A program made the translations under genes and the position numbers. 64,000 bases of DNA from Archangium sp. (GTDB taxonomy: Bacteria; Myxococcota; Myxococcia; Myxococcales; Myxococcaceae), in NCBI GenBank assembly GCA_046595925.1, contig JBKJSE010000164.1, positions 15,260 through 79,259 on the forward strand, written 5' to 3'. This document shows positions 34,901 through 36,975 of the stretch, piece after piece. The notes below the pieces were generated by a model. That model saw only the letters and a list, made by a program, of their open reading frames with translations. It searched no databases and was not told the DNA's origin. Numbering within the stretch: the stretch's first letter is position 1; each line of letters starts with the position of its first letter.

Positions 34901-36975
34901 CCACCACCTGCAGCCTCGACGGCGGCCCCTTCGGGCCCTGCACCAACCCCCTCGATATCACCGGCCTTTCGCCCGGGGTTCACACCCTGGTGGTGCGCGT
35001 CACCGACGCGGCGGGCAACAGCAGCCAGACCACCACCACCTTCGAGATCCCCGAGTTGCTGAGCCCCCCGGACCTCATCATCACCGGTGGTGGCTGCGGG
35101 TGCGGGAGCACCGAGGGCACCGGGGGGCTGCTGCTCTCGGCGCTGGCGCTGCTGGGTCTGTTGGCGCGCCGCCGCGGCCGCTGGTTGATGAGGGCCGCCG
35201 GCCCTGCGGCGGTGGCGGCGCTGGTGGCGGCGGCCACGCCCGCTGCGGCGCAGCAGGTGCAAGTGGCGGGCTTCGATCTCGAGCGCCTCGACTTCAACCC
35301 TGGCGCATCGGCCAGCCTGGTGACGAGCACAGGCGACCTGATGCGCAAGGGCGCCTGGCGTGCGTCGGTGCTGCTGCACTACCAGCACGACCCGCTGGTG
35401 CTGTACCGCAGCGACACCAACGAGCGGCTGGGCGCGGTGGTGGGCAGCCGCTTCACCACCCACCTGGTGGGCGCGTGGACGCCGCTCGACTGGCTGGAAG
35501 TGGGGCTGCAGGTGCCCATCGTGGTGTGGCAGGGCGGCGCGGATCTCACGCAGTGGAACGTGCCGGCGCCGGTCCCCACCGCGCTGGGCACGCCGTGGAT
35601 AACCGGCCGCTTCGCGCTGCTTCGGGAGCGCGGCGGCGCTGCGCTCGATCTCTCTGTTCAGGTGGGCGTGGGCCTGCCCTTCGGCAACGCCGCCGCGTAC
35701 ACCAACGCGCAGCCGGTGGCCTTCGCGCCGCGCGTCGGTGCGGGGAAGACGGTCGCGAGTTGGCTGCGGCTGGGTGGTGAGGTGGGCTTCGTGGTGCGCG
35801 GGAACCCGGGCGAGGCCACCGTCACGGTCAACGGCACGGCCTCCACCTTCACCGCGGCGATGTCGGCCACCACCATTGGCCCGAAGCTGCGCGGCGAGCT
35901 GACCCTGCGCGGTGCCATCGGCCTGGACCAGCCGGTGGCCGGCGGTGAGCTGCTCCTGGGTGTGCGCTACCCGCTGGGCGCCTGGGTCGAGGTCTTTGCG
36001 CTGGGCGGTCCGGGCCTGGGGCGGCTCCCCGGCAACCCAGCCTTCCGGCTCATCGGGGGCCTCGCCGTGGCGCCCCCCCTCGAGGTCGAGCCCACCTTGC
36101 CCCGCTGCGATCTCAGCGGGACTGACGAAGCCCTGCGGCGTGACTGCCCCGCCCTCGACGCCGACGGCGACGGCATCAGCAACGCCACCGACGAGTGCGT
36201 GCGCGAGGCCGGTGTGGCGTCCCGCCAGGGGTGCCCGCTCATCGACACGGATCAAGACGGGCTCGCCGACGAGGTCGACGCCTGCCCGAGAGAAGCAGGC
36301 CCTCAGTCACGTCAGGGGTGCCCCCTCAAGGACAGCGACAAGGACGGCATCGAAGACGCGGCCGACGCCTGCCCCATCGAGCCGGGGCCTGCGGAGCGTA
36401 AGGGGTGCCCCCTCAAAGACGGCGACAAGGACGGCGTGGAAGACGCCGCCGATGCCTGCCCCTCCGACCCCGGGCCTCTGCAGCGCAAGGGCTGCCCCGT
36501 CAGGGATCAGGACGGCGACGACGTCGAGGACGCGCTCGACAACTGCCCCGCGGTCAAGGGCCTGGTCGAGAACGCGGGCTGCCCCGCCAAGCAGCGTCAG
36601 TTGGTGGTGATCACCGCCGACAAGCTCGTCATTCAGGAGTCCGTGTACTTCGCGACGGGTAAAGCGGTGGTGTTGCCCCGCTCGAACAAGCTGCTCGACA
36701 ACGTCGCCGAGGTGCTCAACGCGCACCTCGAGGTCCCGGTGATCCGCATCGAGGGCCACACCGACGGCCAGGGCAAACGAGAAGCGAACGTGAAGCTCTC
36801 GCAGGCGCGGGCCGAGGCCGTGAAGGCCGCGCTGGTCAAGCGCAAGGTGGCCGCCGAGCGGCTCAAACCGATGGGCTTCGGACCGGATCGACCCCGAGAC
36901 ACGAACGAGACCGCCGCCGGCCGCGAGCAGAACCGGCGCGTGGAGTTCAACTTCGAGGCGGTGGTCAAACCCTAG
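28969..36975 (+). CDS. 2668-codon ORF: giant Ig-repeat surface adhesin (lectin-like N-domain, DUF11, ~20 Ig-like domains, MYXO-CTERM-like tag) continuing in frame into an OmpA/TSP3 outer-membrane protein
   Basis: Signal peptide [17 protein letters not shown]. DUF11 signature [50 protein letters not shown]. Two alternating Ig-like repeat types. No stop codon until 36973-36975. Confidence 0.85.
   Translation: [2668 protein letters not shown]
31288..32682 (+). repeat. five tandem 279-nt (93-aa) Ig-like domain repeats
   Basis: Unit starts (ACC GTC/GTG GAT/GAC ...) at 31288, 31567, 31846, 32125 and 32404, with the next unit boundary at 32683. The period is exactly 279 nt. Confidence 0.9.
35086..35184 (+). 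other. internal MYXO-CTERM-like sorting tag ([33 protein letters not shown])
   Basis: Gly/Cys motif, then a hydrophobic helix, then an Arg cluster. This layout normally forms the extreme C-terminus of myxobacterial surface proteins. Confidence 0.7.
35188..36975 (+). CDS. candidate independent CDS inside the long ORF: OmpA-family outer-membrane protein with 5 thrombospondin type-3 repeats (595 aa)
   Basis: ATG at 35188 and signal peptide [23 protein letters not shown]. A beta-barrel-like N-domain, 5 D-x-D-x-D-G repeats ([15 protein letters not shown] etc.) and an OmpA_C domain ([37 protein letters not shown]). Confidence 0.5.
   Translation: [595 protein letters not shown]

Follow-up and report, generated by a model that had tools for sequence, protein, structure and literature searches.

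The tra genes and MXAN_5598 of Myxococcus xanthus are the closest described systems to the locus considered here. traA and traB overlap by 4 bases (PMC3325183; PMC12045341) and their products form 1:1 complexes, with TraB consisting of a signal peptide, a barrel, thrombospondin type-3 (TSP3) repeats and an OmpA domain (PMC12045341). The MYXO-CTERM sorting tag is cleaved by the myxosortase MrtX (Guo, Haft and Wall, mBio 2025, PMC11980579). In that paper one protein, MXAN_5598, is described as carrying an internal MYXO-CTERM tag, with an adhesin before it and a barrel and OmpA domain after it. It was likened to TraA and TraB, which are encoded by overlapping open reading frames (ORFs), and its gene adjoins ftsA and ftsZ. 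Processing of its N-terminal part was proposed, and the configuration, described for this one case, was termed atypical and rare (PMC11980579); the passages on it give no count of such proteins and make no mention of an internal signal peptide. MXAN_5598 has also been detected in outer-membrane vesicles (PMC4158809). A 64,000-nucleotide stretch of Archangium sp. DNA (hereafter the window) contains an 8-kb ORF in which an adhesin with a MYXO-CTERM tag continues in frame into a TraB-like protein. This fusion is real, conserved and recurrent, and the locus probably encodes one genuine precursor, a two-protein envelope polyprotein.

The ORF occupies 28969..36975 of the plus strand, on which all features of this gene lie, and consists of 2668 codons and a stop, with no internal stop. 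It encodes, in order, an adhesin of immunoglobulin-like (Ig) repeats, the MYXO-CTERM tag, a signal-peptide-like helix, a barrel, TSP3 repeats and an OmpA domain. The 2073-residue upstream portion is referred to as part 1 and the portion from M2074 on as part 2. The internal tag (residues 2040-2071; 35086..35181) has a tripartite layout, consisting of the Cys motif GGGCGCG (35086-35106), a 15-residue transmembrane helix (35122-35166; Kyte-Doolittle 11-residue maximum 2.64) and the Arg cluster RRRGR. The frame then runs through a predicted cytoplasmic loop, RRRGRWLMR (35167..35193; net charge +5, acidic residues 0), which doubles as the Arg cluster of the tag and the n-region of the next signal. 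Beyond the loop lies a second hydrophobic helix of 19 residues (35194..35250), a putative internal signal peptide that aligns with the N-terminal signal peptides of stand-alone homologues. An in-frame ATG (35188-35190, encoding M2074) and an off-frame TGATGA (35186-35191) both fall inside the loop. The initial annotation had recognized the tag architecture at codons 2040-2072, the continuation of the frame into the ATG at 35188 and a signal-peptide-like helix, and hence two complete exported proteins joined end to end. These observations were borne out: the layout of Cys motif, helix and Arg cluster is present, the signal-peptide rules and alignment agree for the helix, and an adhesin with a tag is followed by a signal peptide, barrel, TSP3 repeats and OmpA domain. 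Among the explanations offered at that stage (a sequencing indel, a recent fusion mutation or a genuine fusion), the evidence favors the last, because orthologues in independent assemblies share the in-frame fusion.

The initial annotation had also proposed aligning the junction with orthologous loci, and the same uninterrupted frame was found in loci L088, L089 and L003. L088 (GCA_030683055.1), from an Archangium metagenome-assembled genome (MAG), encodes P0123 (2641 residues), which matches the full length of the window protein with 80% identity. At the DNA level, window positions 29008-36962 are ~82% identical to L088 positions 6028-13916, and one blastn alignment of 7.5 kb spans the junction. 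The two sequences are collinear codon by codon across the tag, loop and second helix, with no indel. Specifically, differences in the 55 junction codons number 12/8/20 by codon position, and the Arg codons are synonymous, with CGC CGC CGC in the window against CGA AGG CGC in L088. L089 (GCA_031412555.1), from a second MAG, encodes a protein of 2669 residues with ~80% identity and is likewise codon-collinear at the junction without an indel. L003, with 60% identity in part 2 and 49% in part 1, is also fused, and its junction is collinear with no relative indel. Additionally, P0122 (2991 residues; 44% identity over the junction query) is an in-frame fusion, copies of 2641 residues with at least 90% identity to P0123 occur in two or three more MAGs, and called proteins of 2641-2991 residues are present in five further assemblies. 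The window protein itself is not in the protein or genome collections searched, where the best matches reach 74-80%. Between the window and L088, the DNA flanking the gene yielded no blastn match on either side at E<1e-20, so the two genomes carry the gene in different surroundings. L003 also has no neighboring proteins in common with the window.

These comparisons bear directly on the possibility of an assembly or sequencing indel, with the real genome containing two genes and a stop at 35186. In favor of such an error, the loss of one base from the GC-rich run would end the first protein at ...RRRGRW* with a TGATG or ATGA overlap, and in L002, the nearest relative with two genes, the stop and start codons overlap. 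The initial annotation had suggested that a single-base indel would restore two genes with an ATGA overlap. This is correct for a one-base deletion, and a two-base insertion would have the same effect, but not every indel splits the gene, and the deletion yields TGATG (1 nt) as well as ATGA. An indel is nevertheless very improbable, because three independent assemblies (L088, L089 and L003) have the same frame without any indel, and further MAGs carry 2641-residue copies. Moreover, L089 is free of stops in every frame at the position of the TGATGA in the window and has no start codon there, and both the 8-kb ORF and its long neighbors are otherwise intact. L001 (ENA contig_58494, 2300-3620), the nearest homologue of part 2 (74%), has numerous frameshifts, both at the junction and within the Ig-repeat gene, for which long-read indel errors are the probable cause. 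Its called protein of 618 residues begins within the tag helix. This locus was set aside as junction evidence because a junction so ridden with frameshifts is untrustworthy.

One could also propose that the fusion arose recently and in this strain alone, as a possibly deleterious mutation, given that L002, at 72% identity, is unfused. However, the fused state is common to L088 and L089 (~80%), L003 (60%) and P0122 (44%), and is therefore older than these lineages. In addition, the split state of L002 appears to be the derived one. In L002, 11 nt inserted directly downstream of the Arg cluster divide the frame into two overlapping genes. In the alignment of L002:2070-2110 to window positions 35167-35190, the inserted 11 nt are AGCGCAGCAAC. 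The Ig-repeat gene of L002 ends ...LRRERSNRSDRGSHG* at a TGA that the insertion creates. This stop overlaps the GTG with which the second gene begins, and the GTG follows a Shine-Dalgarno sequence, GAGGGAG. L002 is also nested within a fused clade in the neighbor-joining tree of part 2, and its sequence resembles the outcome of a natural fission through the 11-nt insertion. A private mutation is thus as hard to credit as an indel, and on the sequence comparisons both are effectively excluded. It can further be argued that, since L002 makes both parts from overlapping genes, the fused and split states give the same mature products. The interchange of these states among close relatives, with L002 on one side and its fused kin on the other, supports a polyprotein.

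Fusion is not limited to the immediate relatives of the window. Stop-less in-frame fusions were found in the window and at L003, L014, L019, L028, L031, L044, L047, L072, L086, L088 and L089, as well as in the proteins P0122, P0151, P0189, P0237, P0251 and P0204. A further candidate, L055, was flagged but not inspected and is outside these counts. The hosts include Vitiosangium (L014), Corallococcus coralloides (L019, a complete genome), Pyxidicoccus (L031) and a Bradymonadia MAG (L028). The junctions have a common order, namely Cys motif, helix, Arg loop, second helix and A-x-A|Q, followed by the barrel, TSP3 repeats and OmpA domain. In the neighbor-joining tree of part 2, the fused loci fall into at least four divergent clades, each of which also contains split or stand-alone members. 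A separate tag-bearing gene lies directly upstream in six loci (L002, L015, L017, L020, L025 and L033). These surveys differed in scope. The scan of genome contigs by OmpA-domain pattern returned 80 loci, many of which are unrelated Bacteroidota OmpA proteins because of the pattern used, while the metagenome scan with a barrel-domain profile returned five loci only, with one new fused case (L086). When the representative library was searched with a query spanning the junction, Ig-repeat proteins dominated the results, and only matches whose best stretch crossed the junction were used.

The stand-alone TSP3/OmpA proteins of the Archangiaceae (P0003-P0120) are full-length homologues of part 2, with 40-52% identity, and share its layout of barrel, TSP3 repeats and OmpA domain as well as a signal peptide ending in A-x-A|Q. 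In contrast to part 2, they are encoded by separate genes for 570-650 residues, several of which have no tag-bearing gene directly upstream.

The tag and the second helix were examined separately. TIGR03901, which the initial annotation had put forward for scoring the tag, gave 25.0 bits (E 1.8e-5) against a cut-off of 20 on the isolated 54-residue piece (35026-35187), and TIGR03382 gave 18.4 bits against a cut-off of 15.85 on the same piece. The tag is not at the extreme C-terminus, as 597 residues lie beyond it and the stop is reached only at 36975, and the same is true in the orthologues. Because it is conserved in every orthologue examined, the tag is not a chance match. As for the second helix, signal peptides were called by the -3/-1 rule and alignment only. 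An n-region of RRRGRWLMR, a 16-residue hydrophobic core and an A-A-A|Q motif are present, and signal peptidase I cleavage is predicted after A2094 (AAA|QQ), between nucleotides 35250 and 35251. At ten fused junctions, Ala is found at -1 in all ten, while Ala at -3 and Gln at +1 are each found in nine. The loop at these junctions is 3-17 residues long with a net charge of +3 to +9, and the second helix is 17-29 residues long with a hydropathy like that of the N-terminal signal peptides of the stand-alone homologues.

Together, these features suggest how a single chain could give rise to two envelope proteins. The N-terminal signal peptide would send the Ig-repeat adhesin of ~2000 residues through the inner membrane until the MYXO-CTERM helix halted transfer, with the Arg cluster staying in the cytoplasm in keeping with the positive-inside rule. 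Nine residues on, the second hydrophobic helix would restart translocation as an internal signal, and the tag helix, Arg loop and second helix would then form a hairpin in the inner membrane. Signal peptidase I would cut after AAA (residue 2094) and free the TraB-like barrel/TSP3/OmpA protein, which would insert into the outer membrane and bind peptidoglycan. On the other side of the hairpin, the myxosortase MrtX would cut at the Cys motif, and the adhesin would presumably be lipidated and taken to the cell surface. The outcome would be the same mature pair as in the usual two-gene, translationally coupled arrangement, but fixed at 1:1. We infer this topology and both cleavages from the sequence.

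Several points weigh against a processed polyprotein. When the tag is scored within the 2073-residue part 1, TIGR03901 gives only 17.0 bits, below its cut-off of 20. Cleavage at either site is purely a prediction for every fused member, and the predicted AAA|QQ site follows from the -3/-1 rule and alignment. The Arg tail of an internal tag has no free C-terminus, and its acceptance by MrtX is presumed. Finally, the in-frame ATG of the loop is kept in both the window and L088, where it reads GTG ATG, and some independent initiation in these two genomes is possible judging from the sequence.

This last point raises the alternative that the fusion is genuine but that the OmpA/barrel protein is made mainly by internal initiation at the ATG at 35188, with the long product being a by-product or a source of the adhesin only. 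M2074 aligns with the start Met of the ~120 best homologues of part 2, all stand-alone proteins of 570-650 residues, an agreement that at first suggested a broken two-gene operon. The retention of this ATG in L088 points in the same direction, and many Myxococcota genes are without a strong Shine-Dalgarno sequence. However, the start is not conserved. The corresponding sequence of L089 is CGC TTT CTG CTG CGC, in which CTG replaces the ATG and neither an ATG, GTG or TTG nor an off-frame stop is found. In L003 the ATG is replaced by CGG, and the first possible start lies within the hydrophobic core. Between the Arg cluster and the hydrophobic core, L089, L003, L019 and L028 contain none of the codons ATG, GTG and TTG, and P0122 is likewise without a start codon ahead of the core. 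Shine-Dalgarno-like motifs before the second helix were found in none of the nine fused loci scanned, and in the window none occurs within 18 nt upstream of the ATG. Moreover, ribosomes translating part 1 meet no stop, so the fusion would be made anyway. Internal initiation as the main source of the downstream protein is therefore unlikely.

The same comparison bears on the TGATGA, which the initial annotation had read as a classic coupling arrangement. The double stop is indeed present in the +1 frame at 35186-35191, but its interpretation as a coupling relic was ruled out, since L089 and L003 are without both the stop and the ATG. In the absence of a conserved start or off-frame stop, the supposed relic is a by-product of the codons TTG ATG AGG. 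Based on these sequences, the downstream part has no conserved way of being translated independently.

The structure of part 2 provides further evidence for its release. The AlphaFold2 model (mean predicted local distance difference test score, pLDDT, 82.5) shows a barrel of 12 strands that a TSP3 linker connects to an OmpA-like domain. The predicted outer-membrane beta-barrel (residues 57-294 of part 2) corresponds to 35356..36069, and in Foldseek it matched FapF (5o65) and the COG4313 channel (4rl8) with target-normalised template modelling (TM) scores of 0.6-0.7. Five TSP3 (Ca-binding) repeats form a periplasmic linker at 36145..36585. They were matched by Pfam TSP_3, and the translation contains five DxDxDG..D..D.CP units, while Foldseek matched the C-terminal half and linker to the periplasmic part of Capnocytophaga gingivalis OmpA (5wtl). 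The OmpA-like peptidoglycan-binding domain (36646..36936; Pfam PF00691, 74.5 bits) matched Pal, OprF and YfiB in Foldseek. The barrel-like domain, five TSP3 repeats and OmpA domain named in the initial annotation are thus confirmed by Pfam, by the repeat count and by the AlphaFold2 model. As a separate observation, the barrel at 35356-36069 is best matched by the FapF amyloid-secretion channel and the COG4313 channel and not by the 8-strand OmpA barrel. This match to channels poses the question of whether the barrel serves as a conduit rather than as an anchor only.

Because part 2 combines a 12-strand outer-membrane barrel with an OmpA domain, it needs to be released from the inner membrane. 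This requirement argues against the proposal that the fusion is left uncut, as an envelope-spanning protein anchored in the inner membrane by its hairpin with the adhesin and OmpA parts both periplasmic. Such a protein would agree with the inferential nature of cleavage in the fused members and with a tag that falls below the hidden Markov model cut-off in its whole-protein context. In contrast, established outer-membrane biogenesis leaves a 12-strand barrel no way into the outer membrane as long as it is tethered to the inner one. The fused loci also conserve both the A-x-A|Q motif and the Cys motif, MXAN_5598 is found in outer-membrane vesicles, and the close relative L002 makes the two parts separately. 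An uncut protein is accordingly quite improbable.

With somewhat less assurance than for the window locus itself, the evidence leans towards a broader proposal, in which these genes encode obligate envelope polyproteins. The chain would cross the inner membrane twice by means of the tag/signal-peptide hairpin, and myxosortase and signal peptidase I would cut on either side to release a surface adhesin and an outer-membrane/cell-wall anchor at 1:1. The fusion and the overlapping operon would be interchangeable by small indels, such as the 11-nt insertion of L002. The fused state would then be common in TraB-like modules, occurring in at least four clades, rather than the rarity suggested by MXAN_5598.

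The remainder of part 1 is that of a large exported adhesin. An N-terminal Sec signal peptide, read from the translation, occupies 28969..29034, with a predicted signal peptidase I site at an AFAAQT motif that is also present in P0123. It is followed by a DUF3344-like N-terminal domain (residues 64-262; 29158..29754), for which the Pfam PF11824 score of 30.9 bits is barely over the cut-off of 27.2 and the family is a domain of unknown function (DUF). This DUF3344-family domain occupies the place of the PA14 recognition domain in TraA and of the protein's own N-terminal domain in AgmC. A sequence search of the PDB with the N-terminal 370 residues returned nothing useful. Next come a DUF11/B_ant repeat domain supported by profile matches (residues 354-482; 30028..30414) and the adhesin stalk of ~1500 residues of Ig-like repeats (30526..35058), with matches to 11 Big_13, Big_6, Ca_tandemer and nine OmpL47-type repeats. 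Neighboring genes in the window encode DUF481, AstE/AspA-like, CLC channel, PPC-domain and cyclase/TPR proteins. When all ORFs of at least 200 residues in the six frames of the 64-kb window were scanned by pattern, the tag described here was the only MYXO-CTERM-like one found. The large neighboring ORFs at 14955-19553, 19555-21780 and 40944-44399, all on the minus strand, are free of the tag.

Several consequences follow for annotation and experiment. Long ORFs with an internal MYXO-CTERM tag and a signal-like helix should neither be "repaired" as frameshifts nor split. The present comparison adds that the fusion is widespread, that fused and split states flip by a small indel, that an independent start is missing and that the signal peptidase site is kept, and together these make the polyprotein model directly testable. 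If both cleavages occur, the locus would represent a simple bacterial route to two envelope proteins at a fixed ratio, and this 1:1 ratio equals that measured for TraA and TraB. It would also provide a natural test of myxosortase on internal tags. The fused (window, L088, L089 and L003) and split (L002) relatives offer a ready comparison of fusion with translational coupling.

Conceptually, the arrangement has parallels in unrelated systems. In viral envelope polyproteins, a stop-transfer helix is followed by an internal signal that is cut by signal peptidase to give two products, and in autotransporters and two-partner secretion the passenger and barrel are fused or split, respectively. These are conceptual analogues only, as there is no homology. 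In addition, the order in the window is passenger, tag, signal and barrel, and the opposite side of the hairpin would be cut by a dedicated sorting protease.

The initial annotation had compared the locus to a TraA/TraB pair. The design matches, since in both a MYXO-CTERM-tagged surface protein goes with a partner made up of a signal peptide, a barrel, TSP3 repeats and an OmpA domain, and the 4-base overlap of traA and traB recurs in the split relative L002. However, TraA and TraB are separate polypeptides, whereas the parts of the window protein are in one chain. Part 2 has the TraB-type layout of signal peptide, outer-membrane barrel, TSP3 repeats and OmpA domain, but scores 249.5 bits with the TraB model NF033763 (240.3 bits for the whole ORF), far from the cut-off of 700. 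No PA14 domain or TIGR04201 Cys repeat was matched in part 1, which contains DUF3344, DUF11 and Big_13/Big_6 instead. Identity as a traAB locus was therefore ruled out by the NCBIfam cut-offs and domain content, and no evidence was found for outer-membrane exchange or kin recognition at the window locus. Among the other fused proteins, P0251/P0276 of Archangium gephyra (2650 residues) bears the UniRef label 'PA14 domain-containing protein'. If this label holds, it would join a TraA-like adhesin to a TraB-like protein and come nearer to a literal TraA-TraB fusion than the window does.

The closest resemblance is to the MXAN_5598 type, which NCBIfam names AgmC (NF047640) and in which an adhesin, internal tag, barrel, TSP3 repeats and OmpA domain are likewise found in one ORF. 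In Corallococcus (L019:2987-11716) and Pyxidicoccus (L031), a fused ORF of at least 2900 residues lies between ftsA and ftsZ. Their relative P0151 from Corallococcus macrosporus bears the NCBI name adventurous gliding motility protein AgmC (NF047640) and scores 398.8 bits against the cut-off of 275 for that model. No paper on AgmC in Myxococcus was found in the literature library searched. The junctions of L019, L031 and P0151 resemble that of the window in the succession of Cys motif, helix, Arg loop, second helix and A-x-A|Q. In contrast, part 2 of the window is only ~32% identical to that of the AgmC type, and the window protein begins with DUF3344 and is without the AgmC_N domain; NF047640 is not among the best 25 of its 31 model matches. 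The window gene is also located outside the ftsA-ftsZ interval, whereas the order in L019 and L031 is ftsA-[fused ORF]-ftsZ. Gene context and the absent AgmC_N domain ruled out orthology to MXAN_5598, and on this basis the window locus is a different paralogue with the same architecture. This architecture has been described once, for MXAN_5598, and has been little studied; the window locus is a further case of it. Since the family includes the AgmC/MXAN_5598 type embedded between ftsA and ftsZ, any processing rule established for one member should hold for the rest.

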